Shown piece by piece: positions 1,826 through 47,190 of a stretch of DNA of 64,000 nt. The notes beneath the pieces were generated by a model. That model saw only the letters and a program-made list of their open reading frames with translations. It was not told the DNA's origin and ran no database searches. A program made the translations under genes and the position numbers. Position 1 is the stretch's first letter; each line of letters opens with the position of its first letter. The DNA is from a bacterium. GTDB lineage: Bacteria > Patescibacteriota > CPR2 > UBA1875 > JAJYID01. The stretch covers positions 74,523 to 138,522 of the forward strand of contig JAUSJO010000005.1 in NCBI GenBank assembly GCA_030647205.1. Reading direction: 5' to 3'.

Positions 1826-3127
1826 ATGTTTTGTGATAAGGTGACAATTAAACTTACAGCGGGCAAGGGCGGAGATGGGCTTGTCAACTTTTTGCATGAA
1901 AAATATCGTGAAAAGGGAGGGCCGGACGGTGGAAATGGCGGCCACGGAGGAAGTGTTTTCATTGTTACAGATGCGAGCGTCAATACTCTTTATGCCTATA
2001 AAACAAAGAGCCGGTTAAAGGCGGAAAACGGAGAAAACGGCAAAAGAAGAGCAAAGGCGGGCGTCGGAGCAAAAGATTTATACGTAAAGGTTCCGATTGG
2101 AACGGTTATATACGACGAGGAAACAGGAGAAAAAATATTTGATTTAACAGGGGAAAAACAGGCAGTGCTAGCCGCAAAAGGTGGAGAAGGCGGGTATGGC
2201 AACGCTCACTTTGTCTCATCGGTCAGACAAGCACCTCAAGTAGCAGAAATAGGCGAAAGAGGAGAAGAAAGGTTTGTGCGGATGGAGCTGAAACTGATAG
2301 CCGATGTCGGTCTTGTAGGCTTGCCTAACGTCGGGAAATCGACTCTGCTTTCCGTGGTATCTGCTGCTAAACCGAAAATCGCCGACTATCATTTTACAAC
2401 GCTGGTTCCGAACTTGGGTGTTGTTGACGGTTCTAAATTTGGAATAGAAAACTTTAGTTTTGTGATTGCTGATATTCCGGGGCTGATCGAAGGCGCTTCT
2501 CAGGGGAAGGGTTTGGGCGATGAGTTCCTGCGCCACGTTGAGCGGACAAAAGTACTCGTTCATATTATCGAGTCAACGAGCCAAGACTTCGTAAAAGATT
2601 TCGACGATATAAATAATGAACTCGAGGTATTTAATAAGGACTTAATCCAAAAACCGCAGATTGTAGTGCTTTCAAAGGCAGATTTGTCAGCTGATTTCTC
2701 GGCGAGTTTAAAGAAATTCAAGGCGCATTTGAAGAAAGTTAAGGGAATACAAATCGTGAACCAAGAGCCAATCGTGATTTCAGCGCCAACCCACCAAGGT
2801 GTAAAAGCGCTGATGTCGCAAGTTGCCCAAACTTTACAAAAATATCAGCCGAAGGAGGAAGAAGTAATACAAGAAGAGTACAAAGTATTTACGCCGGAGG
2901 ATTTGGTTGGTAATAGATTTTCAGTCGAAAAGGAAGATGACAAGTTCATTATTACCGGGGCAAAAATAGAAAGGTTCGCCCGAAAAACTGACTTTAACAA
3001 TATCCATGCCAAGACGAGATTTGTAGATATTATGAAAAAAACAGGGATCTTGAAGGAACTTGAAAAACAAGGAGCAAGATCAGACTCGAACATTGAGGTT
3101 TCAGGAAAGAAATTTAAGTTAGGATAA
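1826..3127 (+). CDS. obg: GTPase Obg/CgtA
   Basis: Gly-rich Obg fold (GGDGGNGGHGGSV), G1 motif GLPNVGKST, C-terminal OCT/TGS-like domain. Confidence 0.9.
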   Translation: MFCDKVTIKLTAGKGGDGLVNFLHEKYREKGGPDGGNGGHGGSVFIVTDASVNTLYAYKTKSRLKAENGENGKRRAKAGVGAKDLYVKVPIGTVIYDEETGEKIFDLTGEKQAVLAAKGGEGGYGNAHFVSSVRQAPQVAEIGERGEERFVRMELKLIADVGLVGLPNVGKSTLLSVVSAAKPKIADYHFTTLVPNLGVVDGSKFGIENFSFVIADIPGLIEGASQGKGLGDEFLRHVERTKVLVHIIESTSQDFVKDFDDINNELEVFNKDLIQKPQIVVLSKADLSADFSASLKKFKAHLKKVKGIQIVNQEPIVISAPTHQGVKALMSQVAQTLQKYQPKEEEVIQEEYKVFTPEDLVGNRFSVEKEDDKFIITGAKIERFARKTDFNNIHAKTRFVDIMKKTGILKELEKQGARSDSNIEVSGKKFKLG

Positions 3128-8280: not shown

Positions 8281-11187
8281 ATGGCGGAAAAATACAATCA
8301 TAAAAGGATTGAATCTAAATGGCAGGAAGTTTGGGAGAAAACAAAAATCAACCGGACTGATTTGACGTCTGAAAAGCCGAAATTTTATAATCTCATAATG
8401 TTTCCTTATCCAAGCGGGGATTATCTGCATCTTGGCCATGGCTACTCGAACTCTGGGGCCGATGTATATGGCAGATATAAGGCTTTAAACGGTTTTAATA
8501 TTTTTATGCCCATTGGCTATGATTCTTTCGGTCTCCCGGCCGAAAACTTTGCTATAAAAAAAGGTATTCACCCCAGAAAAAGCGTTTCTCAAAATATTGA
8601 ACATGCGCAGAAACAGCTAAAGACTTGGGGTTGCATGTTTGATTTCTCTCGAGAGGTGACGACGTCCGAGCCGAACTATTATAAATGGACCCAATGGCTA
8701 TTTTTAAAGCTGTACGAGCAAGGTTTGGCATACCAGAAAGAGTCGCCGGTGAACTGGTGTCCGAAGTGTATGACCGTTCTCGCCAACGAACAAGTCAAAG
8801 ATGGTTTCTGTGAGAGATGCGAAGCAGAAGTAGTTCAAAAAAATATGAAACAGTGGTTTTTCAAAATCACTGACTATGCAGACAGACTGATTAAAGATTT
8901 GGATAAGGTAGACTGGCCGGAATCATCCGTGACCAAACAAAGAAACTGGATTGGCAGGAGCGAAGGGGTTCAGATGGATATGCCGGTTGCCGACTCGAAA
9001 GAGAAATTATCCGTTTTTACGACCAGAATAGATACAGTTTATGGCATGACGTATGTCGTTTTAGCTCCCGAACATCCTTTAGTTGATAAGGTTACAACTG
9101 CTGATCAGAAGAAAGAAGTTGAAAAGTACAAGATTCAAGCACAAAAACAGACGGAAATAGAACGGCAATCTCTAGAAAAGGAAAAAACAGGGGTATTTAC
9201 CGGCTCATATGCCATAAACCCATTTAACGGCGAAAAGGTACCAATTTGGATAGCCGACTATGTTTTGTTTGGATATGGCACTGGCGCCGTGATGGCAGTA
9301 CCAGCCCATGATGAGAGAGATTTTGAGTTTGCGAAGAAGTATGATTTGCCGATTATCCAGTCGATAGCTCCTGTTTTTGTTGATCCTACAAATCCGCCAA
9401 AAGATGGCATTGAAGATACGGTAAGACATGGCGTAATAGTTTTAGTTAAGCATTGGAGCGAGGACAAATATTTGCTGGATTATTCTCCGAAGTTTGGCTG
9501 GAAATGTCTTTTCTGCGGTGGTGTAGAAGATGGCGAAGATCCACTTGAGGCGGCTGCACGGGAGATCAGAGAAGAAGCGGGGTATCAGAATATCAAAGAA
9601 GTGAGATATATGCCGCTTCATCACATAGATAGATTCCATGCTCCTCACAAGGGAGTAAACAGGTACGCTCACCAAAAAAATATTTATATTGAACTTGCTG
9701 ATGGCGAGTATGTTGAACCGACTGAGGAAGAGAAAGAGCTTCATCAGGTTAGCTGGCATACTAAGGAAGAAATGCTTGAGCAAATAACATTAGTTAACCA
9801 TAAATATATTTTCGAAACGGAACTTATGAGCGGCCAAGCTTGGACAGGTTATGGAGCTCTTGTTGATTCCGCAGAGTTTACTGGACTACTTTCCGAAGAA
9901 GCGAAGAAGAAAATGGCTGAGTGGCTGGAGAAGAAGAAAGCAGGAGAAACGAAGGTTAACTATCGTCTGCATGACTGGTCTATCGGCCGGCAGAGATACT
10001 GGGGCGCTCCTATTCCCATCATTTATTGTGAGAAGTGTGGCGTTGTGCCAGTGCCTGAGAAAGATTTACCGGTTGAGCTGCCTGAAAAAATTAAAGATTT
10101 CAGGCCAAAAGGAACGGGGAAGGGGCCACTCGCCTCAGTTAAAGAATTCGTCGAAACGACATGTCCGAAATGCGGTGGTAAAGCTGAGCGTGAAACTGAC
10201 ACGATGGATACATTTGTAGACTCTAGTTTCTACTATCTCAGATATCCGAGTGTTGGTAATGATAGTGAAATGATGGAAAAGAAAGTCATCGAGAAGTGGC
10301 TGCCGGTAGATATGTATGTCGGCGGGGCTGAGCACGTGACGATGCATCTTCTCTATGCCAGGTTTATCGCAAAGGCTCTTTATGACGCTAAGCTTTTGAA
10401 ATTTGACGAACCATTTTTGAAACTTCGACATCAAGGGATGATACTTGGTCCGGACGGCAAGAAAATGTCCAAGTCTAAGGGAAATGTGGTCATACCGGAC
10501 GCAGTTATCAAGGAGCATGGAACTGATATTTTCAGGACATACATCCTTTTCATGGGCAGATTTGAAGACGGCGGGCCATGGGATCCGAAGGGGATTGTAG
10601 GCATAAAGAGATTTTTAGAAAAATATTGGTCGCTTGCTAACTTGATTTCAGCTGAAAACTTTGATTTAGATCAGTCAGTCGATGGTTCTCAGGATATGAT
10701 AGTAAAGAAAACTATCAATAAAGCTATTAAAAAAGTTGGTGAAGATATAGAAAGTTTTAAGTTTAATACGGCAATAAGCTCTCTAATGGAATGCGTTAAT
10801 GCTTTAAATTTTCTTGAAATGAAATATAAACCTAAACAGAGTATAGAATTATGGAAAAACACGGTAGAAAAATTGACCATCATACTTTCTCCATTTGCTC
10901 CCCATATGACCGAGGAAATTTGGGAGAGTCTAGGAAATACGGAGAGTGTTCATTTACAAAGTTGGCCGAAATACGATAAGGATTTAATAAAAGATGAGAC
11001 AGTAACGGTGGCTGTTCAGATAAATGGCAAGGTGAGAGAGCAGCTTCTGATCAACGTCGAAGCAGAGGAAAAAGAAGTTTTAGAACTAGCAAAAGCGAGT
11101 AAAAAAGTGCAGAATTATTTGCAAGGCAAAGAAATCAAAAAGGTGATTTATATCAAAGGTAAGCTCCTTAGCCTTGTAGTTAGCTAA
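8281..11187 (+). CDS. leuS: Leucyl-tRNA synthetase with an inserted Nudix hydrolase domain
   Basis: HIGH-type motif HLGHGYS, KMSKS (KMSKSKGN), CP1 TTRxDT motif and VNYRLHDW. About 135 extra residues (nt ~9426-9830) carry the Nudix box GGVEDGEDPLEAAAREIREEAGY (nt 9517-9585). Confidence 0.9.
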   Translation: MAEKYNHKRIESKWQEVWEKTKINRTDLTSEKPKFYNLIMFPYPSGDYLHLGHGYSNSGADVYGRYKALNGFNIFMPIGYDSFGLPAENFAIKKGIHPRKSVSQNIEHAQKQLKTWGCMFDFSREVTTSEPNYYKWTQWLFLKLYEQGLAYQKESPVNWCPKCMTVLANEQVKDGFCERCEAEVVQKNMKQWFFKITDYADRLIKDLDKVDWPESSVTKQRNWIGRSEGVQMDMPVADSKEKLSVFTTRIDTVYGMTYVVLAPEHPLVDKVTTADQKKEVEKYKIQAQKQTEIERQSLEKEKTGVFTGSYAINPFNGEKVPIWIADYVLFGYGTGAVMAVPAHDERDFEFAKKYDLPIIQSIAPVFVDPTNPPKDGIEDTVRHGVIVLVKHWSEDKYLLDYSPKFGWKCLFCGGVEDGEDPLEAAAREIREEAGYQNIKEVRYMPLHHIDRFHAPHKGVNRYAHQKNIYIELADGEYVEPTEEEKELHQVSWHTKEEMLEQITLVNHKYIFETELMSGQAWTGYGALVDSAEFTGLLSEEAKKKMAEWLEKKKAGETKVNYRLHDWSIGRQRYWGAPIPIIYCEKCGVVPVPEKDLPVELPEKIKDFRPKGTGKGPLASVKEFVETTCPKCGGKAERETDTMDTFVDSSFYYLRYPSVGNDSEMMEKKVIEKWLPVDMYVGGAEHVTMHLLYARFIAKALYDAKLLKFDEPFLKLRHQGMILGPDGKKMSKSKGNVVIPDAVIKEHGTDIFRTYILFMGRFEDGGPWDPKGIVGIKRFLEKYWSLANLISAENFDLDQSVDGSQDMIVKKTINKAIKKVGEDIESFKFNTAISSLMECVNALNFLEMKYKPKQSIELWKNTVEKLTIILSPFAPHMTEEIWESLGNTESVHLQSWPKYDKDLIKDETVTVAVQINGKVREQLLINVEAEEKEVLELAKASKKVQNYLQGKEIKKVIYIKGKLLSLVVS

Positions 11188-31409: not shown

Positions 31410-31489
31410 ATTTAGGTTTCTAGATTTGGGCTTAAAGCAGGCTTTTTATTGTTATAGATTCCCGTTTGAGCGGGAGTAAAGGATGGGTT

Positions 31490-34315
31490 ATGCAGGATAA
31501 AATCATAGTCAGGGGTGCTCGCGAGCACAACCTAAAAAATATAGATGTTGAAATCCCTAGGGATAAATTAGTCGTGTTTACAGGACTTTCCGGTTCAGGA
31601 AAGTCCTCTTTGGCCTTTGATACCATTTATGCTGAGGGCCAGAGGCGCTACGTGGAGAGTCTTTCCTCATATGCGCGCCAGTTCCTCGGCCTCATGGAAA
31701 AACCCGATGTGGACCAGATAGAGGGCCTCTCACCGGCTATTTCTATCGATCAGAAGTCTACCACCCGCAACCCGCGCTCCACAGTCGGCACCGTTACTGA
31801 GATTTACGACTATTTGAGAATACTTTATGCACGCATCGGCGTTCCACACTGTCCTTTGTGTGGGAAAGAGATTAGAAAGCAGACCATACCTCAAATCATT
31901 GAACAGATAATGGCGATGAAAAAGGGCACCAAGTTCATGATACTGGCACCTATCATCCGTGATAAGAAAGGCGTTCATAAGTATGTCTTTGCCGAGCTGC
32001 AAAAGGCCGGCTATGCAAGGGTGCGCGTGGACGGCAAGGTCTATGAAGTTGAGGATACGCCCGTTTTAGATAAGAACAAAAAGCATACGATAGATGCGGT
32101 TATAGACCGATTTACTTTAGATAAAGAAATAGAAAAGCGCATATCCCAGTCGGTAGAAAGTGCCGTAAATCTTGGCGAGGGAGTAATAATTTTGTTCAAC
32201 TCCGAGACCAAAGAAGAGAAAATATTTTCCCAGCACTTTGCATGCCTCGACTGCGGCATCAACCTTCCTGAAATATCACCGAGAAGCTTCTCGTTTAACT
32301 CTCCATACGGCGCGTGCCCGTACTGCACGGGACTTGGCGTCAAGCTTGAAATAGACCCGAAACTTGTCGTTCCAAACGCAAATCTTAGTATTCCAGAAGG
32401 CGCTATCCGCCCTTGGTCCAGAACCGCCAGCAAGATGGGTTGGTACATCAAACTGCTCTACGGAGTTGCCGAGAAGCACGGATTTGATATAAACGCGCCC
32501 TACAAAGACCTGCCCAAAAAGGCAAAAGACATCGTGATGTACGGCACGGGTGACGAAACCTACAACGTTCACATGGGGCTTCGAGAGTACACCTCAGACT
32601 ATGAAGGCGTAGTTGCTAATCTTGGCAGACGTCACAAAGAAACCGACTCTGATTATGTCAGAAAAGAAATAGAAAGGTATATGAGTGAGAAGGAGTGTCC
32701 GAAGTGTAAAGGAACTCGCCTCAAGCCTGAAATAGCCGCAGTTACAGTTGGCGGTAAGACAATAGTCGAGATAGTCACTATGTCACTCGATAGGGCACAC
32801 GAGTTTTTTGAAACCATGAAACTTTCAGATAGAGATCAGCAAATAGCTGTTCAAGTCCGCAAAGAGTTGTCAGAGCGAATAAATTTTTTGCTCAATGTCG
32901 GACTTAACTACCTGACACTCGACCGTTCTGCGACGACCCTTTCCGGCGGAGAAGCCCAACGTATAAGATTAGCCACACAGATCGGTTCATCCCTCATGGG
33001 CGTGCTTTATATACTAGACGAGCCGTCCATCGGCCTTCACCAGCGTGACAATATACGCCTCATCGAGACATTAAAGCGCCTTCGTGACCTTGGAAACACC
33101 GTCATCGTCGTAGAGCACGACGAGGAAACCATGCTGAACTCAAACTGGATTCTCGACATTGGTCCCGGAGCAGGGGAAGCTGGCGGACGCATCATCGCCC
33201 AGGGCACACCGGAGCAGATTATGAAAGACCCGAAGTCCATCACAGGACTCTACCTTTCAGGCAAGAAAACCGTAGATTCACCAGAAAAGCGCCGAAATGG
33301 ACACGGAAACTCCATCACCATAGAGGGCGCCACCGAGCATAACTTACGTGACGTCACAGTAGACATCCCACTCGGCAAGCTCGTTCTCTGTACAGGCGTC
33401 TCTGGCTCAGGCAAGTCATCTCTCATTAACGACATCCTAGCCAAGAAGCTCTCCCAAGTATTCCACCGGGCACAGGCGCTACCGGGCAAACACAAGAGCA
33501 TCAAAGGCCTCACCAATCTCGACAAAGTCATCGACATCGACCAGTCGCCGATAGGCAGAACCCCTAGAAGCAACCCCGCCACCTACACAGGCGTATTTAC
33601 GGAAATCCGCGACCTTTTCGCATCCGTTCCCGAGGCAAAGATACGCGGGTACAAGCCGGGACGCTTCAGTTTCAACGTCAAAGGCGGCCGATGTGAGGCG
33701 TGTCGCGGTGAAGGTATCCTGAAGATTGAGATGCACTTCCTCCCCGACGTCTACATCACTTGCGAGGAGTGTAAGGGCAAGCGCTACAACGCGGAAGTTC
33801 TCGATATCAAATACAAAGGCAAAAATATCTCTGATGTTCTGGAAATGACGGTCTCAGAGGCGCTCCAATTCTTTAAAAATATTCCTAAAATCCAAATGAA
33901 GCTGGAAACGCTTGAACGAGTAGGCTTGGGTTACATACGACTTGGCCAGCCGGCAACGACACTTTCCGGCGGTGAATCTCAAAGGGTGAAATTATCGACC
34001 GAATTATCTAAGAAATCTACCGGCAAGACGCTCTACATTCTGGATGAGCCGACTACCGGCCTGCACATGGACGATGTAAATCGCCTAATGAATATCCTAA
34101 ACGCGCTTGTTGACATGGGAAATACCGTGCTTGTTATCGAGCACAATCTGGAGGTTATCAAGGGCGCGGACTGGATTATAGATCTCGGGCCTGAAGGCGG
34201 GGATAAAGGGGGAGAAGTGGTTGCCGAAGGAACCCCGGAACAAGTGGCACGAAATAAAAAATCTTATACAGGGCAATACTTGGCTGAGATCTTGAAGAAA
34301 GGAGCTATTAAATGA
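31490..34315 (+). CDS. uvrA: Excinuclease ABC subunit A (start chosen at ATG 31490; the ORF extends to TTG 31466)
   Basis: [18 protein letters not shown]; two ABC modules; Zn fingers. The C-terminal tail after ...EGTPEQV is a lineage-specific extension. Confidence 0.95.
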
Positions 34316-34545
34316 ATTGGCTCAGTGCTTTAGCTGATATATTTACAATTTTAGGATTCCCAATAGCTGTTATTTTAGTAATAAAAGAGTTTCGTAAAGA
34401 GGGGAAAATTCTAAATAACATTGAAAGCTCAATTTCTAGTGGGAATATTTCTGCTGACAAGATAAACAATAAAGGTGATATTATAAATTATACAGTCAAT
34501 AATCATATTAGCAGCGAACTAAAGGAAAAAAGCAATGAAAAATGA
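34312..34545 (+). CDS. Small membrane protein (hypothetical) in the AT-rich segment
   Basis: ORF overlapping the uvrA stop. Confidence 0.4.
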
Positions 34546-34870
34546 AAACAAATTTGATATCAAAGAAGGGACTGTTAGTTTTTGGACAAAACCTGGGCAA
34601 ATCGATTTTTCAGGTAATCAGATTATGCCGATGATACAATTCGACTCTCCAAATGGATCAATTTTTATTGTCAAGGATGATGATAAGAAGATTAAATTTT
34701 TCCACGTTTACTTAGGTAAGGGAAGAACTGATGTAGAACATGATGTTTCGGGTTTAGACCCAAAAACTGAACATATGTTTGCTTTTACGTGGAGCATAAA
34801 AGAGAGATCTCTAAATATTTATATTGATGGCGAGCTGAAAAATACAACAAAGATTGACTATATAAAGTAA
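34535..34870 (+). CDS. Concanavalin-A-like (Laminin_G_3-type) jelly-roll domain fragment
   Basis: GTVSFWTKPGQ...MFAFTWSIKERSLNIYIDGEL matches LamG_3 hallmarks. Confidence 0.45.
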   Translation: MKNENKFDIKEGTVSFWTKPGQIDFSGNQIMPMIQFDSPNGSIFIVKDDDKKIKFFHVYLGKGRTDVEHDVSGLDPKTEHMFAFTWSIKERSLNIYIDGELKNTTKIDYIK

Positions 34871-34872
34871 TT

Positions 34873-34922
34873 GGGGCGGGGAAATAGTGGCAGAAGGAAC
34901 TCCGGAACAAGCGGCAAAATAA
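34873..34922 (+). pseudogene. Degraded duplicate of the uvrA 3' end (encodes ...[11 protein letters not shown])
   Basis: Aligns to uvrA 34193-34257 (ggcgggga.aa...gaaggaac.ccggaacaag.ggca..aaataa). Confidence 0.7.
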
Positions 34923-34984
34923 CTTCCTTTTCTATTGACAAAAACCCCAATTAGAACTAATATTTGTTTTAAGAAAGGGATTTT

Positions 34985-35767
34985 ATGAAATCCAGGATTT
35001 GTTTACTAATTTTTGCTCTCGCACTAATGGCCTTTCCATTAGGAAATGTTAATGCCGCTGTTAAAGTTAATGGCTATATTAGAGATGGAAAGTGGGTTAG
35101 CAGTTATGTTCGTTCCGAACCAAATGCATTAAAATATGACAATTATAGCTATAAATCCGGTGATGATCTTTACAACAAGAGTTATTCTTCTTCCACTAAG
35201 AGTTATTCTTCAAAATGGTATACGCCCTCATATAGCTGGGACGATGATTATTACACTGGTCTTTCTTGGTACAATACTTACGGTGGAGGAAGTAAAACTA
35301 AAACTTATAGTTCATCATATTCCCCGTCTTTAAGTAGTTATACTTTTCCCAGCACAAGTAGTTATTCACTAGATAATGATAACTATTACTCAAGTTATTG
35401 GACTTCTAGATATAAACCTTCATATTCTTCCAGCACTTATAAATCGTTATTTGATGATTCTGAAGACGATAATAATAGTTATACGCCTTCATATAATTCA
35501 ACATATAAACCCTATACTCCTAGTTACACCCCAAGCTACAAACCTTACACACCCAGTTACACAACACCGAGTTACACCACTCCAAGCTATAAACCCTATA
35601 CTCCTAGTTACAGTACGCCGAGCTACAATTCTTACGCACCAAGCTATGGGTCTTCAAGTTATGGTAGCTCTGGAAGTTCTTATGGCGGATATGGTTCTTC
35701 GAGTTATGGCAGTTCGTATGGTTCTGGAAGTTATGGTTCAAGCTATGGATCATCATATAATTATTAG
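34985..35767 (+). CDS. Secreted Ser/Tyr/Gly/Pro-rich low-complexity repeat protein
   Basis: Signal peptide MKSRICLLIFALALMAFPLGNVNA; repeats (TPSY/KPYTPSY)n and GSSYG. Confidence 0.55.
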   Translation: MKSRICLLIFALALMAFPLGNVNAAVKVNGYIRDGKWVSSYVRSEPNALKYDNYSYKSGDDLYNKSYSSSTKSYSSKWYTPSYSWDDDYYTGLSWYNTYGGGSKTKTYSSSYSPSLSSYTFPSTSSYSLDNDNYYSSYWTSRYKPSYSSSTYKSLFDDSEDDNNSYTPSYNSTYKPYTPSYTPSYKPYTPSYTTPSYTTPSYKPYTPSYSTPSYNSYAPSYGSSSYGSSGSSYGGYGSSSYGSSYGSGSYGSSYGSSYNY

Positions 35768-35783
35768 TTAAGTAGGAGTATTT

Positions 35784-36092
35784 ATGAAAAAATCAGAAAA
35801 ATTTTTAGTTGTTGTTGGAGTACTTTTTGTTGTTGCATTTACTTTTTCAGCAGTTCTTAATTACCTAGATTACAAATTAAAGAAAGAAGGGTATATAACA
35901 ACTCTTTTTCAAACATATACCAGTAATGTAGAAGCATGTCGGGAAGCAGTTAATAAAGCTAACGAGAAGGCTTCTGATCAAGAAAAGAAAGACGCAGTTA
36001 AAAAGACATGTATTGATGAAATCAACAATAACAGCAGAGAAGCAAAGCTTTTGAAAAATTGGGGACAGAGTAGTCTTTTAAGTAAGGAATAG
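35784..36092 (+). CDS. Small membrane-anchored hypothetical protein
   Basis: RBS AGGAG. ORF. Confidence 0.4.
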   Translation: MKKSEKFLVVVGVLFVVAFTFSAVLNYLDYKLKKEGYITTLFQTYTSNVEACREAVNKANEKASDQEKKDAVKKTCIDEINNNSREAKLLKNWGQSSLLSKE

Positions 36093-36103
36093 GAAATTTT
36101 AAT

Positions 36104-36511
36104 ATGGACTTAGTGAAGGCTAGTAAAGATGATTGTATTTTTAAATGTAGAGATTACAAAAAAGTATTAACTCATTTTACAAAAAAAAATTATTATCGTC
36201 ATGCAAAAAAAAGACCAATTTTGCTAGATAAAACCTTCCTTCCCCCAAGAGTCAAAGAGGCACTCGTTAATCCATCAATAATAATGCCGAGTCACAACGA
36301 TAAAGACGCTCATTGTTATTACCATCACGAGATAAGCGTTAATAGGAATATTAACTGGTATACAAAAGTCGTTGTTCATATTGGACATACGGACGTTGAC
36401 ACTAAAGAGAGAGTGAACTATATTAAAACTGCATGGAGAGTAAACTTAATCAAAGAATTAGCATATAATAAAAAACCAATATATTATGATGGCACCAGTC
36501 CCAAAAGTTAA
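36104..36511 (+). CDS. Hypothetical protein (possible DUF4258-like toxin partner)
   Basis: ORF adjacent to and overlapping a DUF2283-like gene. Weak support. Confidence 0.3.
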   Translation: MDLVKASKDDCIFKCRDYKKVLTHFTKKNYYRHAKKRPILLDKTFLPPRVKEALVNPSIIMPSHNDKDAHCYYHHEISVNRNINWYTKVVVHIGHTDVDTKERVNYIKTAWRVNLIKELAYNKKPIYYDGTSPKS

Positions 36512-36920
36512 ATTAGATATTGATAAAATCAAAGACCAATTAGCTAGTCTGATGAAGATAGCAAAGACAAAAAGTTGGAAATTTGCTTATGATGAAGAAT
36601 TGGATTGTCTTTATTATTCACCTGAAGAATTAAAGGGTAATTTGATAACATTTAGCTTTGACAAGGAATTTACATTTTATATTGACACAAAGTCCAATAT
36701 ACATGGTTTTTTTATTGAATACTTCTCTACGAACTTTCTTGAGCATGAGAAAAAATTCAAAGAACTACCTGGGATGATGACTAAAGAAGAGAATGGCCTT
36801 AAAGTTGTTCCCAAAAAAGACCAAGAAAAATCAGAACTAGTAGAAACGGCTTTAGTCTCAGAAGTTATGTCGGGTTTTTTTCAAAATACTAAAAATCTAA
36901 AAGATTTAGTAGTAGCTTAG
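36486..36920 (+). CDS. Hypothetical protein with a DUF2283-like motif (FAYDEELDCLYYSP)
   Basis: Motif match from memory. Confidence 0.35.
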   Translation: MMAPVPKVKLDIDKIKDQLASLMKIAKTKSWKFAYDEELDCLYYSPEELKGNLITFSFDKEFTFYIDTKSNIHGFFIEYFSTNFLEHEKKFKELPGMMTKEENGLKVVPKKDQEKSELVETALVSEVMSGFFQNTKNLKDLVVA

Positions 36921-37033
36921 TTTGAAACCTCGCCCTAAAGTCTAGTGAAGTTTTGTATACTTGTCTTGGTTTAATAAAAGGAATAAAATACTAATGAGGG
37001 TGAGGCCCTTATTTTTTATTAGTATTCTAAATA

Positions 37034-37756
37034 ATGGATAAAGAGACAATAAAACTTTTAATAAGTCCAGAGGCTATACAAGCGATAACGGTTGGAATTT
37101 TTCTGATTATAATAATATTTACGTTAAAGAAAATAGTATCTTCAGAAGATCGCAATTTTGAAATAACCCTACAAAAAATTATTGGCGGTTTGAGCGTGTT
37201 TATCATCGCGGTTATATCTCAAAATACCTATGTCTTTTTATTGTCTCTTTTTATAGGAGGCTTAATTATTGCTAGTGAGGATTTCATGAAAGTTTTTGCA
37301 GCAATTCTTCGATCAGACCCAGAAAAAATACATGAAATTATCAATGCTGATATTGGTAGAAAAAAACCATCTGAAGTACAGCCTTCAAAGGAGGGAATTG
37401 AAGCGAGGGCTAGTGATGCCGGCAAGGTTATTGACGAGAAAGATAATGAAAAGACAAAACTGCAAATTGAGTTGGATTTCGAAAGAATTTATAATTTTAT
37501 TTTTGGTAGTCAAATATTCTTATTAAGAGAGATAAAAAGTAGGAATGGGGTAGGGTGGGATTATGTAAGTGATTATTTTGATTCTCTTAGAAGAGAATAT
37601 TCAGTCTTCAACAGTTGGAATTTGAATACTTATCTTGAATTCCTAAAAACTCATAGTTTAATTGAAATGAAAGATAATTTTATAACAGTTAGCCAGAAGG
37701 GAGAAACCTTTATAAGTTATATTGATTATATGAACTATCAAAAGTATGGTCTTTAG
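37034..37756 (+). CDS. Hypothetical membrane protein
   Basis: ORF with N-terminal TM helices. Confidence 0.4.
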   Translation: MDKETIKLLISPEAIQAITVGIFLIIIIFTLKKIVSSEDRNFEITLQKIIGGLSVFIIAVISQNTYVFLLSLFIGGLIIASEDFMKVFAAILRSDPEKIHEIINADIGRKKPSEVQPSKEGIEARASDAGKVIDEKDNEKTKLQIELDFERIYNFIFGSQIFLLREIKSRNGVGWDYVSDYFDSLRREYSVFNSWNLNTYLEFLKTHSLIEMKDNFITVSQKGETFISYIDYMNYQKYGL

Positions 37757-37837
37757 TTTAATTCTCAACCCCACCGCCTTTGGCGGGGCAGGCCCTGGAT
37801 TTTCTCGGGCAGGCAAACCCTCAAATTAAAATAATTG

Positions 37838-37846
37838 TGCTATAAT
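37838..37846 (+). promoter_or_regulatory. Extended -10 (TGcTATAAT) 7 nt upstream of ATG 37854, implying a leaderless mRNA
   Basis: Read directly. Confidence 0.45.
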
Positions 37847-37853
37847 TTTGCTT

Positions 37854-38957: not shown

Positions 38958-38981
38958 TTTCAATGTAGAACAGTTTCTGTG

Positions 38982-39167
38982 CTATTTTTTATTTATATAT
39001 TTCCACAATGCGGCGATACCGAGAATTAGGGCGACTATGACGAGTATGTAGCCAATCCACATAAAAATCATGGCTCCGCCATAGCTTCCACCCATCATGT
39101 TTTGATAGGAATCGTAGTTGTACATCATTGTAAATCTCCTTTGTTTAGCTTGAGTATAGGTAAACAA
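38982..39167 (-). CDS. Tiny single-TM protein, paralog of 42520-42708 (real start probably MMYNYDSY...)
   Basis: About 85% amino-acid identity to the paralog. RBS AAAGGAG precedes ATG ATG. Confidence 0.55.
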   Translation of the reverse strand: MFTYTQAKQRRFTMMYNYDSYQNMMGGSYGGAMIFMWIGYILVIVALILGIAALWKYINKK

Positions 39168-39558
39168 TGATGGATTTACTATGGGCAGGAATACAAAAGA
39201 ATCAGAACATTTTCGTGGCTATTTTTTAGCTAAATCCAGCAAGTTTTTGAAAAGAGTTAAGGCCGCCCTTGCGGGCGGCCTTGTTGGTACGTGTTTTCGC
39301 GTTGTTTTCTTGCAGTTTCTGGTTGTCAGCCTTGGGAGCTAATTATCAAGAGCATTAACGCGATGCAGAAGATAGCTATGGGGAGCCAGTTTCTTTTGAT
39401 GTCTCTCCCGAGCTCAAACAAGGGCCAGAACATCTCGTCGCGATTCGCCACCTTCTTGATTCTTGTCATTCTTGTCGTCATTGCGATAACCTCCTTGAGA
39501 TGTTACGTGGTTAGTAACATGCCGATTGACTGGGGTGCAGGTGTACATGGAAGTTGGC

Positions 39559-39951
39559 CTATACGGCCAGAGATTCCTTTTTTGAGCGGAGTCGTTCGAG
39601 TGTTTGCTGGAGCCTAGCGAGCTCAGGTCTGACTGCCTTGATTGCATAAAGGCGCTGAGAAGCAGTGAGCGGAGGATCGTTCGTGATTTCTTCAAGCCGC
39701 GGTGCTGAGCCGAGAGGGAAAAGGGGAGGGGTAGTAAATCCAGGTATATCCATTGCGCATAAACCCTCCTTATTGATAACCAGATTTCCCCGCTCATCCG
39801 ACTCGAAAGTAATTGCCTTAAAGTAAGAATCAGCGAGTTCAGCTGTGATCTCTTTGATGAGCTTGTCTGCCTGAAGCGCGAGCTCATCCTCTGTTCCTTT
39901 TTCGGCCGCTTCATCCCAGGTCATCTCAGTTTTTTGTTCTGACGACATCAA
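39559..39951 (-). CDS. Acidic hypothetical protein
   Basis: Strong RBS AGGAGG. GC-rich. Confidence 0.5.
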   Translation of the reverse strand: MMSSEQKTEMTWDEAAEKGTEDELALQADKLIKEITAELADSYFKAITFESDERGNLVINKEGLCAMDIPGFTTPPLFPLGSAPRLEEITNDPPLTASQRLYAIKAVRPELARLQQTLERLRSKKESLAV

Positions 39952-40058
39952 AACCTCCTAGGGTAGTTACGCTTTTTGAAGCTCATCCTAACTTACAAAA
40001 GTCTGAAGATTATAATACTTTTAAGATAAATTCTCAACCCAAACCTCGAATTTTTCCA

Positions 40059-40092
40059 AAAGAAAAAGACGGGTGACTAGCACCCGTCTTTT
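40059..40092. terminator. Bidirectional terminator
   Basis: aaaaagacgggtgactagcacccgtctttt. Confidence 0.65.
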
Positions 40093-40110
40093 GGATTGGA
40101 ATCCTCCTTG

Positions 40111-40587
40111 CTATACCGAAGAAAGCCGCTCTGTTAATGCTTTTTCCTCGCGGATTTTCCGGAGTATTTTCCGCACGCGCCGGAGAGAAGGCTTGAATCT
40201 CCTGATTGCTGCTTCTCGCTGAAAATCGTACGGTAATGCATCTATGGCATGAGGGTACATGATCGATAGCCCTTGGCTCGCAACGACCAGTCTGTTTCCG
40301 TCTTTCTTCATCAGATCGACGATCTTGCCCTCTCCGGCAAGTTCCGAAATCATCTTCTGGATAATAAGGTCGACTTCATATGCAAGCTGTTGTTCGTACT
40401 GAGGGCTGTCGGCCTTGTCCCAAGTTAGTTCGAATTCGCGATCGAGAATAGCTTGATAACCTTTGTCTACCTCCTTAAGGTCAATAGTCCCGGCCAGAAT
40501 TCGATTTCGAATTTCTGTTTCCTTTCTGTAAATGGCCAACATCAGATCGTCCTCGACAGCTTTTTTGTCTTTCGCCGTCATCGACAA
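40111..40587 (-). CDS. Hypothetical protein
   Basis: RBS AAGGAGG. Confidence 0.5.
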   Translation of the reverse strand: MSMTAKDKKAVEDDLMLAIYRKETEIRNRILAGTIDLKEVDKGYQAILDREFELTWDKADSPQYEQQLAYEVDLIIQKMISELAGEGKIVDLMKKDGNRLVVASQGLSIMYPHAIDALPYDFQREAAIRRFKPSLRRVRKILRKIREEKALTERLSSV

Positions 40588-40723
40588 CCTCCTTTGGATA
40601 CGTACCTCTAGCGGAGGTATTCGCCTTATCTCGATATGAGACGACCCCTAAGCGGATAGGGGAATTAGGCATTCATTCTAACATAATTATTATGTATTGT
40701 CAATAAAATCTCAAAAAGGATTT

Positions 40724-40751
40724 TTAGAAAAAGCAAAAAGGCCCCTTGCGG
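40724..40751. terminator. Bidirectional terminator
   Basis: aaaaaggccccttgcggggccctttt. Confidence 0.65.
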
Positions 40752-40774
40752 GGCCCTTTTAAAATCAGGTGTTG

Positions 40775-41017
40775 TTACTTAGGAGGAATAGAGATTGGTG
40801 ATGCATCCGGTGTTCCGGTGTCACCGTCCCAGGGGGGTTCATCTGATCTTTGGATGGCGATATCGTACAACCCCGGTCCTGTCTTGAAGATGATTGTCTG
40901 AGTGTGTTCGATTTTCGGACTCGTTGCTGTCCCGTTTTGGTTGCCGCAACTTGCGATCAGAACGAGACTGACCAGAAGGGCAACTACCAGCAGGATCCTC
41001 TGTACGTTTATTGACAT
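40775..41017 (-). CDS. Small lipoprotein
   Basis: Signal peptide plus lipobox LIASC. Confidence 0.5.
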   Translation of the reverse strand: MSINVQRILLVVALLVSLVLIASCGNQNGTATSPKIEHTQTIIFKTGPGLYDIAIQRSDEPPWDGDTGTPDASPISIPPK

Positions 41018-41220
41018 GACTCCTCCTTGAGTCTCTGTTTTCCAGAATATTTTTTACCGCTTCGTTAGAAGCGGAGTAACCTGATTTAATGTATGGTTCA
41101 CTCTAAAGCCAAAATTTCTGCTTAAGAGAATAATGTATACTACCATAGAATATCTTTTTTGTCAATAGTTATTTAAACCCCAAATTCTCACCTTCGCAGT
41201 AGAAAATAGGGGAAACTACA

Positions 41221-41254
41221 GGCACGAGATTTTGCTATCGCACAATCTCGTGCC
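41221..41254. promoter_or_regulatory. 34-bp palindrome ggcacgagattttgctatcgcacaatctcgtgcc (copy 1)
   Basis: Perfect 11-bp arms. The second copy lies 167 bp downstream. Confidence 0.5.
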
Positions 41255-41387
41255 ACCTCACTCCTAAAACTCAGGATTATAAAGTAAAACTCAGAAATAT
41301 TGATGATATTTGCTTTTGTATACTTGTTTCTCATTTCTGAAAGGCATTAAAATATTTAGCACAAAGACAAAGTTAACGGCACGAGTT

Positions 41388-41421
41388 TTTGCTATCGCTC
41401 AAACTCGTGCCTTATAAAGGA
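41388..41421. promoter_or_regulatory. 34-bp palindrome ggcacgagtttttgctatcgctcaaactcgtgcc (copy 2), immediately before the PaaX-like gene
   Basis: Read directly. Confidence 0.5.
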
Positions 41422-41426
41422 AACAA

Positions 41427-41960
41427 TTGAAAAAGAAAAGAAAGATATATTTAGGGAAGAATGAGAGAGAAATTCTAAGGATGGTGGGAACAGGAGCTTT
41501 GGTGGCTGCTTCTTTGGTCGCGCCGAACTTGCCAAGTGCCTTTGCGGGCAAGAAAAAGAAATCTTATCGGCAGAGTTTCCAGAGGGCGTACGATAAAAAC
41601 CTAATTTATTTGAGCGGTGAGAAGGTTCAGCTCTCGGAAAAGGGACAGAAGCTGATGGAACAGATACTTAGCGAGGATATTGAAATTAAAAAGCATGAAT
41701 GGGATGGGATTTGGCGGATTGTTTCGTATGACATTCCGGAAGATCCGCTGAAAAAAGAACGAAGTTATTTCAGGCGAAAACTTGAGAGTTTAGGATTTGT
41801 GGAACTGCAGAAAAGTATGATGGTGATACCTTATGAATGCAAAGAAGAGATAGCGGTAATTGCACAGAATTTGCGGATCTCGCCATATGTCATGCATCTC
41901 ATCACCGATAACCTGCCTAGACAGAATGAGTTTGTTAAGAGATTTGGATTGGAAGAATAA
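41427..41960 (+). CDS. PaaX-like domain protein (putative transcriptional regulator)
   Basis: WDGIWRIVSYDIPE...RSYFRRKLESLGFVELQKSMMVIPY parallels the PaaX core. Confidence 0.45.
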   Translation: MKKKRKIYLGKNEREILRMVGTGALVAASLVAPNLPSAFAGKKKKSYRQSFQRAYDKNLIYLSGEKVQLSEKGQKLMEQILSEDIEIKKHEWDGIWRIVSYDIPEDPLKKERSYFRRKLESLGFVELQKSMMVIPYECKEEIAVIAQNLRISPYVMHLITDNLPRQNEFVKRFGLEE

Positions 41961-42044
41961 TTCTCAACATTTTGCTACCTGTCCGCCCGTAGCTTCAGCG
42001 AAGGAGGATCGCTCAAAGTTGAGAATTTATAAGACATGTTTTGA

Positions 42045-42497
42045 TTATTTTTTAGCTAAATCGAGCAAGTGCTTGTGCTGCCACTCTCGTTCTTTGGCAA
42101 CATCTCCGCCTGCTCTATGAATAGCTTGTAATGCGTAAATTGCACTGCCGATGGCGTGAGTGGGGACGTGCGCGGTTGCCGCTGCCTGGCCTGCGGCTCG
42201 GGCGGCAGAACGGGCTGAGCTATCCTTGTTTACATCACGGGCGGCAGCATGAGATGCAAGGGAAGCGCCGCGGATAACAGACATTTTAAATACACCTGTA
42301 TCTAGCCATGTTTGCAATGTTTCCAGAGCTTGTTTGGGTCGTTTATCATTTGGAAAACTATCTTCAAAATAGGGCAGAACCCGCTCAGCACAGTCAACAG
42401 CCCAGACAGCCAAGGTTTTCTGGTCAGCTTTACTGACTATGTCTATAAAATATTCCTTCTGCTCCGCGAGTGAAAAACTAGATTTCATACCTCTCAT
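42045..42497 (-). CDS. Helical Ala-rich protein resembling predicted immunity-protein families
   Basis: AAARDV..SSARSAARAAGQAAATAHVPTHAIGSAIYALQA. GC-rich. Weak family call. Confidence 0.3.
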   Translation of the reverse strand: MRGMKSSFSLAEQKEYFIDIVSKADQKTLAVWAVDCAERVLPYFEDSFPNDKRPKQALETLQTWLDTGVFKMSVIRGASLASHAAARDVNKDSSARSAARAAGQAAATAHVPTHAIGSAIYALQAIHRAGGDVAKEREWQHKHLLDLAKK

Positions 42498-42519
42498 TAT
42501 ACACCAGGGCAGAATGTGG

Positions 42520-42708
42520 CTATTTTTTGTTTAGATATTTCCACAACGCGGCGATACCGAGGATTAAAGTAACTATGACTAGTATGTATCCAAGCCACAT
42601 GAAGAGCACGGCTCCACCTGTGCTCCCACCCATCATATTTTGATAGGAATCGTAGTTGTACATCATCATAAATCTCCTTTGTTTAGTTTGAGTATGGATT
42701 AAAAGCAA
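42520..42708 (-). CDS. Tiny single-TM protein, paralog of 38982-39167
   Basis: See the paralog entry. Confidence 0.55.
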   Translation of the reverse strand: MLLIHTQTKQRRFMMMYNYDSYQNMMGGSTGGAVLFMWLGYILVIVTLILGIAALWKYLNKK

Positions 42709-42765
42709 TGATTTTCCTATGGGCAGGAATACAAAAGAATCAGAACATTTTTGTGGGCGGTCTCG

Positions 42766-43206
42766 TTATACTTGAGCTTGCTTTTCGGGTATAAACCTCG
42801 TAATGTACAGGCAAAAGACCATGGTAAAAAGGCCCAAGTAATAAAAGAAGTTGGTTATAGGGAATACGCCCACCTTGAGCCAGATGAAAAGAGGGGCATG
42901 AATAGACAAGAAGCCTAAGACAAACAGTATAAGAATCACTTTCTTTTCTAAGAGCTTTTTTGTAAAGAATCCGGGTATCATTATATCCAGTCCGAGAATT
43001 GCGGATATCTTATAAATCTCCATCGAGGGGTAATGGCCGCTTTTGAACAGTGCAATAGTTGGTATAAAAAAGGCAGCGCTTATTCCAAGGGCGATGAATA
43101 TCTGCCGTTTGTAAAGCTGTATTTTCATCTTCATATTTTCCATATACAAGAGAATACCATAAAAAGAGAAAGTAGGACATTTCCGTGGTCGTTTTAAAAA
43201 AAGCAA
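42766..43206 (-). CDS. Membrane protein (4 TM); real start probably an internal Met
   Basis: ORF, hydrophobic. Confidence 0.45.
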   Translation of the reverse strand: MLFLKRPRKCPTFSFYGILLYMENMKMKIQLYKRQIFIALGISAAFFIPTIALFKSGHYPSMEIYKISAILGLDIMIPGFFTKKLLEKKVILILFVLGFLSIHAPLFIWLKVGVFPITNFFYYLGLFTMVFCLYITRFIPEKQAQV

Positions 43207-43595: not shown

Positions 43596-43780
43596 GATCA
43601 CCTCCAAATAGCTTGTTTGCGTTTGAGATCTAAACCTGCCATTTAGCAAAAACTTATTTCGGCCAAATGTCAGGTCTAGAGAGAGCTGGAAAGGTACGAT
43701 AGTGATTTATAATAGCATGAAAGATATAAAATATCAATTCTGAAGTCGTCACAATATAACATTCTCGTGAGCGGTTTTTG

Positions 43781-43789
43781 TGCTATAAT
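43781..43789 (+). promoter_or_regulatory. Extended -10 TGcTATAAT 6 nt before ATG 43796, implying a leaderless mRNA
   Basis: Read directly. Confidence 0.45.
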
Positions 43790-43795
43790 TCTGCC

Positions 43796-44260
43796 ATGGA
43801 AATCATCAAGAAAATAGATATTCATAAGGAATCAGAAAATTTTCTAAAAGAGTGTTCGCCTCCATCGGTAGGATATCTAGAAAGAGCCTTTAATAAGTAT
43901 AAGTTTTGGTATCAAATCTCTGTAGATGAAGATGATTTTAGTAAAATTATGATTGGCGGTTCTCCTTTAAAAGATGAACCTTGTTTTCTCAAGGAAGCGG
44001 TTGAAGAGCTAGTCCAAAATAAGCACTTACTAGAGGTTGAGCAAGAGGGGGTTAACACAAAACATGTTGGGAAATATCTAGAAGCGAACTATTTAGGTGA
44101 TATATTTCTAATACAGAAAGACTTTATAACCAAGAACGATCTCTATGTTATAGACGGGATGCATAGACTTTTAGCGTATGGGCTGAGGCTAAAGGAAGGT
44201 GAGAAGTTTCAGGATTTCATCGCTTATCTTGGTTGGAATGAAAAACTCTTAGTGGAGTAA
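43796..44260 (+). CDS. Hypothetical protein
   Basis: ORF only. Confidence 0.4.
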   Translation: MEIIKKIDIHKESENFLKECSPPSVGYLERAFNKYKFWYQISVDEDDFSKIMIGGSPLKDEPCFLKEAVEELVQNKHLLEVEQEGVNTKHVGKYLEANYLGDIFLIQKDFITKNDLYVIDGMHRLLAYGLRLKEGEKFQDFIAYLGWNEKLLVE

Positions 44261-45762: not shown

Positions 45763-47190
45763 ATGGATTTGAAAAAGACAGTTCAAAAACTTCCAACGAC
45801 TCCCGGCGTCTATATCTACCGAAACGCGGGAGGGAAGATTATATACATCGGAAAAGCTATCAACCTGCGTGCCAGGGTGAGGTCGTACTTTCAGGATTCT
45901 CCGCAAGAGCCCAAAACTCAGAAATTAGTTAGAAATATCGCCACATTAGAGCATATGAAGACGGGTTCTGAGATAGAAGCACTAATCCTTGAAGCTGAGC
46001 TTATAAAGCGCTATAAACCGAGGTTTAATATCATTTGGCGTGATGACAAAAACTATATCTACATCAAGATTACGAACGAAGATTACCCACAAGTTTCGCT
46101 AGTACGCCAGATAGTAGACGATAAGGCGAAGTATATCGGGCCTTTTGTGAGTGCCGGTGCTGTACGAGGATTACTCCGCTATATAAGGAAAATATTCATG
46201 TTCCGGCATTGTGAAAACCTGCCTCAGAAAGTTTGTCTTCAATATTCCATCGGAAACTGTTCAGGACCTTGTGAGAAGTTTATTACGAAGGTAGAGTATA
46301 AAAAAAGTATTCGCCAGATGGAGAAGCTCTTTCAAGGAAAGACGAAGGAGATAGAAAAAGAGTTCAAGCGTGAGATGAAGCTTGCTGCTAAGGGTGAGGA
46401 CTTTGAGAAGGCGGCTTTGTACAGAAATCGGCTGATGTGGCTAAAGAAGATTAAAACCATAGAACTGGGCGAGGAAGAGAGGGATTTGAAGCGGGATAAG
46501 GCACTAGTTGGGCTTCGCGATGCGCTAAATCTAGGTGCCGTGCCGAAAAGGATAGAGTGCTACGACATTTCCAATATTTTTGGTAAGGCGGCTGTGGGCT
46601 CAATGGTGGTTTTTGTGGACGGGATTCCGGAGAAAAACCATTACCGTAGATTTGAGATTAAAACAGTAGACAAGATTAGTGATACGGATATGATACGTGA
46701 AGTTTTGGGGCGCAGATTCAAGAAATTTGGCAACATAACCAAGCCGGACGATTCATTCTCGCAGATTCCTGACCTCCTTATTATAGACGGAGGGAAAGGA
46801 CAATATTCGGCGGCCGAAAAAGCACTTGCGCAATATGGACTAAACTTGAATTTAATATCTTTAGCGAAACAGCGCGAGGAAATATTCAGAAGGAATCCGG
46901 AAACAGGCGAGTTCTATAAAACTATGCTGGAGGAAGGTTCGGAGAGCTTGTATCTGGTCCAAAGAATTCGTGATGAGGCACACAGATTTGCCATTACATA
47001 CCATAGAAGCAAGAGGGGGAAGGAAATGGCAGTTTCAAATCTGGATGTTGTTGATGGTATCGGCCCAAAAACAAAGAAAGTGCTTCTCAAAACTTTCGGT
47101 TCGGTAGAAAATGTCAGAAACACATCAGTTGAAGATTTGTCAAAAATAGTCGGTGAAAAATTAGCAAAAAAGATTAAGGAAACTTTATGA
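45763..47190 (+). CDS. uvrC: Excinuclease ABC subunit C (compact, 475 aa)
   Basis: GIY-YIG (GVYIYRNAGGKIIYIGKA), UVR motif, endonuclease V-like domain, C-terminal (HhH)2. Confidence 0.9.
   Translation: MDLKKTVQKLPTTPGVYIYRNAGGKIIYIGKAINLRARVRSYFQDSPQEPKTQKLVRNIATLEHMKTGSEIEALILEAELIKRYKPRFNIIWRDDKNYIYIKITNEDYPQVSLVRQIVDDKAKYIGPFVSAGAVRGLLRYIRKIFMFRHCENLPQKVCLQYSIGNCSGPCEKFITKVEYKKSIRQMEKLFQGKTKEIEKEFKREMKLAAKGEDFEKAALYRNRLMWLKKIKTIELGEEERDLKRDKALVGLRDALNLGAVPKRIECYDISNIFGKAAVGSMVVFVDGIPEKNHYRRFEIKTVDKISDTDMIREVLGRRFKKFGNITKPDDSFSQIPDLLIIDGGKGQYSAAEKALAQYGLNLNLISLAKQREEIFRRNPETGEFYKTMLEEGSESLYLVQRIRDEAHRFAITYHRSKRGKEMAVSNLDVVDGIGPKTKKVLLKTFGSVENVRNTSVEDLSKIVGEKLAKKIKETL

Follow-up and report, generated by a model that had tools for sequence, protein, structure and literature searches.

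The interval between uvrA and uvrC in a bacterium of the candidate phyla radiation (CPR) raises the question of what history lies behind a pair of direct repeats that enclose an immunity-like gene, with the end of a second such gene beside one of them. The interval lies in a 64,000-nucleotide (nt) stretch of contig JAUSJO010000005.1 (assembly GCA_030647205.1, positions 74,523 to 138,522), here called the window. The window derives from a metagenome-assembled genome (MAG) and is chromosomal core, encoding LeuRS, SMC, UvrB, UvrA, UvrC, LigA, Obg and tRNAs. An earlier note on this DNA saw a recombining cassette array in the repeats, possibly a polymorphic locus of the toxin/immunity type. In the reading favored here, which is given a probability of about 0.6, the repeat represents a small, self-sufficient gene in two copies that diverged long ago, named tiny1 and tiny2, in a strain-variable stretch between uvrA (31466-34315) and uvrC (45763-47190), together with the deletion scar of an Imm5_like gene.

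The repeat itself is real. A repeat search matches 38981-39218 to 42519-42756 over 238 nt at 85% identity, and a MAFFT pairwise alignment extends the match to 38978-39218 and 42516-42756, or about 241 nt with a single 1-nt indel. Beyond these limits the copies fall out of register and homology stops, so that the identity of about 85% reported earlier stands while the reported length of about 270 bp does not, as it included an extra 10-20 nt at each end that cannot be aligned in register. Both copies, on the minus strand, are complete gene modules consisting of a distal conserved block, a weak promoter, a ribosome-binding site, a coding sequence and a stop codon. In each, about 90 nt of upstream sequence with an AAGGAG 7 nt before the ATG precedes 48 codons that start MMYNYDSY. 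The tiny1 coding sequence (38982-39128; MMYNYDSYQNMMGGSYGGAMIFMWIGYILVIVALILGIAALWKYINKK, 48 aa) has the NCBI locus tag Q7S53_03590, and that of tiny2, also 48 aa, occupies 42520-42666. Since the Met-Met position is also where homologues from 25 other genomes begin, 48 aa is the likely product. The gene for a single-pass membrane protein with its ribosome-binding site is thus present in each copy as the earlier note had it, while the longer end of its 48-60-aa range, which depends on upstream TTG codons that would give 60-62 aa, is unlikely. The exact 48-aa sequence of tiny2 is recorded solely in a Logan assembly, and the MAG annotation probably overlooked tiny2 or placed its start elsewhere. 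For tiny1, an exact search of the contig index gave no record.

The two copies are old. They differ at 21 of 147 nt, amounting to 11 synonymous and six replacement codons, and the Nei-Gojobori method gives a synonymous divergence (dS) of 0.76, a nonsynonymous divergence (dN) of 0.068 and a dN/dS of 0.09. The same calculation between the window and the related locus L004 gives a dS of 0.90 for uvrC, 0.56 for the Ser_hydrolase gene and 1.07 for Imm5_like. The tiny copies are therefore about as far apart as these two genomes, and the pair goes back either to an ancient duplication or to the arrival of a second copy from a relative at a similar distance. Purifying selection has maintained both as coding sequences. 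A recent segmental duplication would be nearly identical, synonymous and non-coding positions included, and the observed values are 85% identity and a dS of 0.76; the duplication by recombination proposed earlier, if read as recent, does not survive a divergence equal to that of the whole genome from L004. That similarity breaks off sharply at the borders of the module is an expected result of selection on a functional unit and provides no evidence for recent recombination there.

Conservation of the upstream region is patchy. The distal element, block 1 (39179-39218 in copy 1, minus strand, against 42717-42756), is identical at 39 of 40 positions and contains an exact run of 35 nt at 39179-39213, while the roughly 25 nt next to it are only about 50% identical. 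Closer to the gene, the stretch that comprises a -10-like box, the 5′ untranslated region (UTR) and the ribosome-binding site matches at 26 of 27 positions. As synonymous sites are half-saturated, the near-identity of block 1 calls either for constraint or for recent conversion; the block is a putative protein-binding site of an activator-dependent promoter. An RNA structure or riboswitch in this region was considered and rejected, as fold z-scores are -0.58 and +0.74 and Rfam returns sub-threshold chance matches only. Inside the gene g160, 43829-43844 match block 1 at 15 of 16 nt, which is judged to be chance.

What surrounds the repeat differs among related genomes, as the earlier note expected. 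In L004, UvrA is 98.8% and UvrC 95.4% identical to the window proteins, but a different set of genes stands between them. With unshared genes in parentheses, the window reads uvrA, (seven genes, tiny1, g51, g130, g158), lipo80, (PaaX_M), Imm5_like, (tiny2, memb125), g134, (g160, a methyltransferase gene), Ser_hydrolase, g87, uvrC; L004 reads uvrA, (eight other genes), lipo80, Imm5_like, (DUF4202), g134, Ser_hydrolase, g87, (MFS), uvrC. Only lipo80, Imm5_like, g134, Ser_hydrolase and g87 are thus shared between uvrA and uvrC in both. L003, L005, L038 and L041 each have other neighbors around the same Imm5_like gene. Both tiny1 and tiny2 fall in strain-specific parts. Imm5_like and lipo80, which the repeats enclose, are genes of the shared backbone. 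The region is a small flexible island of about 11 kb that has undergone gene-by-gene replacement with scars. Most of its minus-strand genes have their own promoter and terminator, and its GC content ranges from 0.33 to 0.50 around a window mean of 0.417. Two GC-rich patches had been singled out before, corresponding to g130 (0.50) and Imm5_like (0.49), but they are not special, since g158, lipo80, g134 and g369 likewise have values of 0.47-0.50.

Because the source is a MAG, the repeat could also be an assembly artefact in which alleles of a single tiny gene from two strains were misjoined across the 35-nt core. Logan contig L001 (SRR13727527), an independent assembly, breaks exactly at the 35-mer (39184 and 42746; k=31), which makes the repeat a branch point in the assembly graph and counts in favor of a misjoin. 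The same contig reproduces 39184-42746 at 100% identity, however, so the inner structure was recovered by an independent assembler. The core of 35 nt is far below read length, with a mismatch immediately on each side of it, and the alternative join would remove Imm5_like and lipo80, which are backbone neighbors of g134 in L004; L003 has the same order around Imm5_like. An artefact is extremely improbable.

The Imm5_like gene (42045-42488, minus strand, 147 aa, Q7S53_03625) deserves its name by homology. It matches the Pfam model Imm5_like (PF21805) over model positions 3-127 of 129 with 145.9 bits (cut-off 25; E 7.6e-43), and its homologues carry the same Pfam assignment; the search against immunity families that the earlier note had called for was therefore positive. 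Its remnant claim is confirmed as well. About 33 nt at 39219-39251 on the minus strand read ...FKNLLDLAKK-stop in frame, and 39220-39249 match 42046-42075 at 27 of 30 positions, where 100 shuffles gave an expectation of 0. The fragment ends in TAGCC, as do the Imm5_like genes of relatives, and it directly follows the intrinsic terminator hairpin of the g130/g51 unit (39259-39282, minus strand). This stub is what a deletion left of a second Imm5_like gene, formerly located upstream of tiny1. Another stub, of 36 nt, occurs in L038 (4747-4781) and also in L039 and L040, where CAATACCAGCACTTGCT-GATTTAGCCAAAATTTAA directly abuts the -10 box TGTATAAT of the intact Imm5_like gene. It is independent of the first and implies a past tandem Imm5_like copy there too, so that tandem copies arose and decayed either more than once or once in an ancestor. 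None of the three outcomes that the earlier note had named as telling against it (no immunity-family homology, no variability among strains, a remnant produced by chance) was obtained.

These results give some substance to the idea of a polymorphic toxin/immunity locus, in which the Imm5_like gene and the stub would be what is left of an immunity array and the toxin would lie elsewhere in the genome or have been lost. The Pfam match, the stubs in two lineages, which suggest past tandem copies, and the strain-variable neighborhood all fit, and polymorphic toxin systems are described as including orphan immunity genes and polyimmunity loci (Zhang et al., 2012; PMC3482391). However, searches of the island proteins and the larger window open reading frames (ORFs) with Pfam, PADLOC and PHROGs returned no toxin, secretion-associated, defense or recombinase domain, and no toxin stands next to Imm5_like in L003, L004, L005, L031, L033, L038 or L041. 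The gene is single-copy and in the same chromosomal place in six genomes (the window, L003, L004, L005, L038 and L041), with a dN/dS of 0.12-0.23 in the clade and a dS similar to that of the backbone and uvrC. In distant, unrelated genomes it is solitary among housekeeping genes. More than 5,000 homologues are 65-83% identical, an unusual degree of conservation for an immunity protein, and the family name has no solved structure or experiment behind it. Instead of a diverse or rapidly diversifying immunity array, the locus holds one intact gene and a 33-nt stub. The history of the stubs lends weak support to a toxin/immunity role and is outweighed by the absence of every other defining feature; such a locus is highly improbable, and the core of the earlier proposal, a recombining array of toxin/immunity type, is not supported where the window proteins searched include no toxin or recombinase and Imm5_like is single-copy.

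That proposal relied on a ‘junction motif’ bounding each copy of the repeat. The exact 13-mer GTGGCTATTTTTT occurs only twice, at 39215 and 42516, against 0.18 expected by chance: at one site it spans the stop codon of the stub and the start of block 1, at the other the stop codon of tiny2 and the start of the Imm5_like upstream region. Of the four boundaries, three do carry the motif, one of these (the left end of copy 1) with a 1-nt deletion; at the fourth, the right end of copy 2, only GTGG is present. On the coding strand the motif reads AAAAAATAG-CCAC, and its first nine bases spell Lys-Lys-stop, an ending native to the tiny family (...NKK-stop) and, independently, to the Imm5_like genes of the clade (...LLDLAKK-stop). 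The motif is therefore made up of the coding 3′ ends of two unrelated genes plus CCAC and is not a dedicated recombination site, contrary to the earlier suggestion of recombination at this sequence. It may still have provided the microhomology for some illegitimate event long ago. A rival account builds on this, holding that illegitimate recombination at the 13-nt AAAAAATAGCCAC joined the 3′ end of Imm5_like to a tiny module and made the duplication. Both junctions, that of the stub with the tiny1 upstream region and that of tiny2 with the Imm5_like upstream region, indeed fall on the rare 13-mer, and microhomology of this size suffices for illegitimate recombination. Yet nine of the 13 nt belong to the coding end that each gene has natively, so their sharing needs no common recombination origin, and the loss of the Imm5_like body upstream of the stub is left unexplained. 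Given the age of the copies (dS 0.76), any junction event is ancient and cannot be reconstructed. This account is possible but doubtful. Two further candidate traces of such events were rejected. The sequence TATAGCACAG upstream of Imm5_like in L003 and L004 might be taken for a 3′ relic of a tiny gene but equals the -10 consensus TGTGCTATAAT of divergent neighbors, which in the window also stands before the genes at 37854 and 43796. The 3′ end of tiny2 and the sequence following memb125 in L041 share 11 nt, but these overlap the memb125 stop codon in another frame and are judged to be chance.

Several points do not sit easily with two diverged copies and a deletion scar. Both ends of the tiny module carry CCAC(R), and in L003 the sequence CCACGTAAATGTTCTGA, just upstream of the Imm5_like -10 box, matches the start of block 1 at 16 of 17 positions; together these hint at a process more site-specific than random rearrangement. 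The similar length of two independent stubs (33 and 36 nt) is slightly surprising for random deletions. The near-perfect block 1 could be a local patch of gene conversion instead of a constrained site, no strong sigma-70 promoter is predicted upstream of the tiny genes, and tiny1 sits behind a terminator. The metal-related role proposed below for the tiny family draws solely on the neighborhoods of other genomes, and neither copy in the window adjoins a metal gene.

The first of these points, the bounded module and the match in L003, would be expected of a mobile or excisable element, either a site-specific tiny cassette with block 1 as its attachment site or a 3.54-kb unit recombining across the 35-nt core. 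So would an exact run of 35 nt within repeats that are otherwise 85% identical, and modules do move here, as PaaX_M stands on opposite sides of Imm5_like in the window and in L005. Against this, the searches of island proteins and larger window ORFs brought up no integrase, transposase or HUH protein, blastn gave no match in plasmid and phage collections, and there was none in viral contigs. Block 1 occurs only twice in the 64-kb window, and the tiny family is single-copy elsewhere. Imm5_like and lipo80 are chromosomal neighbors in L004, and in L003 the lipo80 promoter region follows Imm5_like, so that the 3.5-kb segment is not a foreign unit. A phage or plasmid origin is rejected on these negative collections and because PHROGs and PADLOC gave nothing meaningful; neither peptide patterns nor the back-translated GIAALWKY motif found tiny relatives in IMG/VR. 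Module ends have no inverted repeats of the kind that define a transposon or a miniature inverted-repeat transposable element, only the 4-5-nt direct repeat CCAC(R). As a Xer/dif-like site or an integron attC site, block 1 likewise fails: no dif-like arms are visible by eye, there are no palindromes, and cumulative GC skew gives no terminus. What would remain is a cassette without a recombinase gene of its own, a CCAC(R)-bounded tiny module, with the near-invariant block 1 at its head, inserted by a host recombinase beside an Imm5-type promoter or 3′ end, and/or loop-out of the 3.5 kb via the 35-nt core. Mobility in any of these forms is very unlikely.

The repeated gene belongs to a family that no Pfam or NCBIfam model recognizes. 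A word-seeded cluster search found only three clusters, and a metagenome scan with tiny2 gave one distant locus among the matches listed. Pattern scans of GTDB species representatives recovered 25 loci, most of them labelled as CPR/Patescibacteria lineages (Saccharibacteria, Berkelbacteria, Parcubacteria, Magasanikbacteria, Kerfeldbacteria, Peregrinibacteria, Doudnabacteria and Buchananbacteria); other labels are Gammaproteobacteria (four), Burkholderiaceae (one), Woesearchaeota (one) and simply ‘bacterium’ (two). A full profile search of 1.84 billion proteins yielded 92 clusters at 50% identity, nearly all of 37-55 aa. Members have an N-terminal segment with 31% Met and 25% Gly (MM..MMGG type), then one transmembrane helix that ends in an invariant LGIAALWKY, and a short basic tail, usually [IL][NS]KK-stop. 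Both tiny1 and tiny2 align over their full length with the 25 homologues and show these features. Every other sampled locus has a single tiny gene, the window being the only one with two. By the positive-inside rule, the Met-rich N-terminal tail probably lies outside the cell and the Lys-rich C-terminus inside. The family is so far undescribed and unannotated, yet widespread in CPR bacteria.

Neighbors of these relatives point to metals. CDF transporter genes adjoin the tiny gene in L002 and L006, P-type ATPase genes, several with HMA domains, in L008, L009, L010 and L014, and genes for CsoR-type metal-sensitive repressors in L010 and L022. A DUF5676 protein with two transmembrane segments is encoded nearby in L008 by Pfam, with similar small ORFs seen by eye in L010, L011 and L016. 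Linkage to metal genes holds in at least nine of 26 loci of tiny relatives; the window has none. Upstream of the L010 tiny gene lies a palindrome, ATCCCC...GGGGTAT, a candidate operator of the CsoR kind. On this association the family is proposed as a putative accessory of copper or heavy-metal export or homeostasis, with putative metal binding by its N-terminus. A part for the tiny protein in a toxin/immunity system is not supported, its relatives standing beside metal-efflux genes.

Family members also occur outside CPR labels: in a MAG of Woesearchaeota, a DPANN archaeon (L021, 562-696), in Gammaproteobacteria-labelled MAGs (L008, L011, L015 and L023) and, in a longer form, in a Burkholderiaceae MAG (L030). 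This points to mislabelled bins or to transfer beyond the CPR.

If the repeat is indeed an old gene pair, its history may be sketched as follows, the order of rearrangements being one that we infer. The second tiny copy would have arisen as an old paralogue or been imported from a related lineage. Selection would then have held only the distal cis element, the weak promoter, the ribosome-binding site and the 48 codons, while one gene after another was exchanged around them. Each copy would yield a single-pass membrane protein, its Met/Gly-rich tail probably outside and its Lys-rich end probably inside, that by association may assist copper or heavy-metal export or homeostasis. Upstream of tiny1, a second Imm5_like gene would have been deleted, leaving its 33-nt fragment.

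The enclosed segment contains the genes that had been listed for it, small acidic, lipoprotein, PaaX-like and immunity-like, the identifications resting on Pfam for PaaX_M and Imm5_like and on a lipobox. The acidic ORFan g130 (39559-39951, minus strand) finds none but itself among 5.8 billion proteins, so that no intact arrangement of g130, Imm5_like and a tiny gene can be traced that way. It is about 25% identical to its neighbor g158 (40111-40587, minus strand), a gene without assigned function that has its own promoter and terminator, and by sequence the two acidic proteins may be old paralogues. Next comes lipo80 (40775-41017, minus strand), which encodes an 80-aa lipoprotein with the lipobox LIASC. 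In L004, lipo80 directly adjoins Imm5_like; in L003, only its promoter/5′ UTR region (window 41069-41170) follows Imm5_like, and the gene downstream is unlike lipo80. On the far side of copy 2, memb125 (42766-43143, minus strand), for a multi-pass membrane protein, ends 9 nt before block 1 of that copy and may be co-transcribed with tiny2.

The lipo80 promoter and its 5′ UTR of about 120 nt (41018-41170, minus strand) are 88% identical in nucleotides to L003 over 41069-41170. This upstream region is more conserved (against L003) than the coding sequence (against L004, about 79%). The 5′ UTR holds a hairpin that matches no Rfam family.

Between Imm5_like and lipo80 lies the PaaX_M (Cas2-like) module (41171-42038, plus strand; gene at 41427-41960 by Pfam), an insertion relative to L003 and L004, where it is absent from this position. 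It is accompanied by a family of hairpins with a conserved center, TTTTGCTATCGCNCAAA, and variable stems of 8-11 bp. In the window, two lie upstream of the gene (41220-41254 and 41378-41412) and one downstream (41961-42030); L005 has two upstream (2988-3028 and 3084-3126). Compensatory double changes affect six of 13 stem pairs, paired cells make up 96.9%, and the lowest fold z-score is -8.5. The hairpin center is confined to PaaX_M loci, being found in L001, which is the window itself, and L005 and in none of 40 other loci.

Some island genes appear to dispense with a leader. Extended -10 boxes (TGTGCTATAAT or TGTATAAT) lie about 7 nt before the ATG at 37836-37849, 43779-43790 and 42496-42503, which suggests that the mRNAs of g369, g160 and Imm5_like are leaderless; for Imm5_like, with its promoter 7 nt before the ATG, this is probable. 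The same extended motif precedes divergent genes in L003 and L004.

Two observations concern other parts of the window. The uvrA-proximal part of the island (34316-37847) is AT-rich (GC 0.327 against 0.417 for the window) and encodes six proteins, five of them without an above-threshold family match and the sixth a Laminin_G_3-like fragment (34535-34870). In the leucyl-tRNA synthetase (8281-11187), the editing domain is followed by an inserted NUDIX domain (residues 386-502, E 7e-15).

Among known systems, the locus most resembles flexible genomic islands in its conserved flanks and anchors (uvrA, uvrC, Ser_hydrolase, g134, Imm5_like, lipo80), with single-gene modules that differ between relatives, and in its heterogeneous GC content of 0.33-0.50, ORFans and gene stubs. 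It departs from them in its size of about 11 kb in a small CPR-type genome, in having a promoter and terminator for nearly every module, and in the lack of mobility genes among the window proteins searched. With polymorphic toxin and orphan immunity loci (Zhang et al., 2012; PMC3482391) it shares an Imm5_like member, remnants of extra copies and a variable neighborhood, but it has no detected toxin or secretion system and no heterogeneous immunity array; Imm5_like is vertically conserved under purifying selection, and the repeated gene is not the immunity gene. Integron arrays also consist of compact single-gene units placed head to tail on one strand with content that varies among strains, as here. 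Unlike them, the island shows no IntI-type integrase among the window proteins searched, and its units do not end in imperfect palindromes of the attC kind. Every unit is served by a promoter of its own, and hairpins recur as a family only with the PaaX_M gene.

The tiny protein calls for a comparison of its own. Met-rich segments that bind Cu(I) or Ag(I) are found in metal transporters and in accessory proteins of metal efflux, as in the Mets motifs of Ctr1, in CusF and in PcoE/SilE. The tiny family resembles these in its N-terminus with about 31% Met, which is probably extracytoplasmic, and in the P1B-type ATPases, CDF transporters and CsoR-like repressors encoded beside its relatives. It differs in lacking sequence homology to them, in being a single-pass protein of 40-50 aa with LGIAALWKY, and in having no metal neighbor in the window.

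On the favored reading, what was suspected to be a recombining toxin/immunity array comes down to a flexible chromosomal island of the ordinary sort, in which an old gene pair and the scar of a deletion are found. Were the very unlikely mobile tiny cassette true after all, it would constitute a cassette system free of a recombinase gene in a CPR genome. The evidence that Imm5_like can stand alone in the backbone and be conserved vertically calls a purely immunity-related role of its family into question. Two by-products of modest value extend beyond this locus: hairpins that accompany a PaaX_M (Cas2-like) gene and whose stems vary by compensatory changes, and a widespread family of Met-rich CPR membrane proteins of about 45 aa that is repeatedly linked to copper and heavy-metal export genes.

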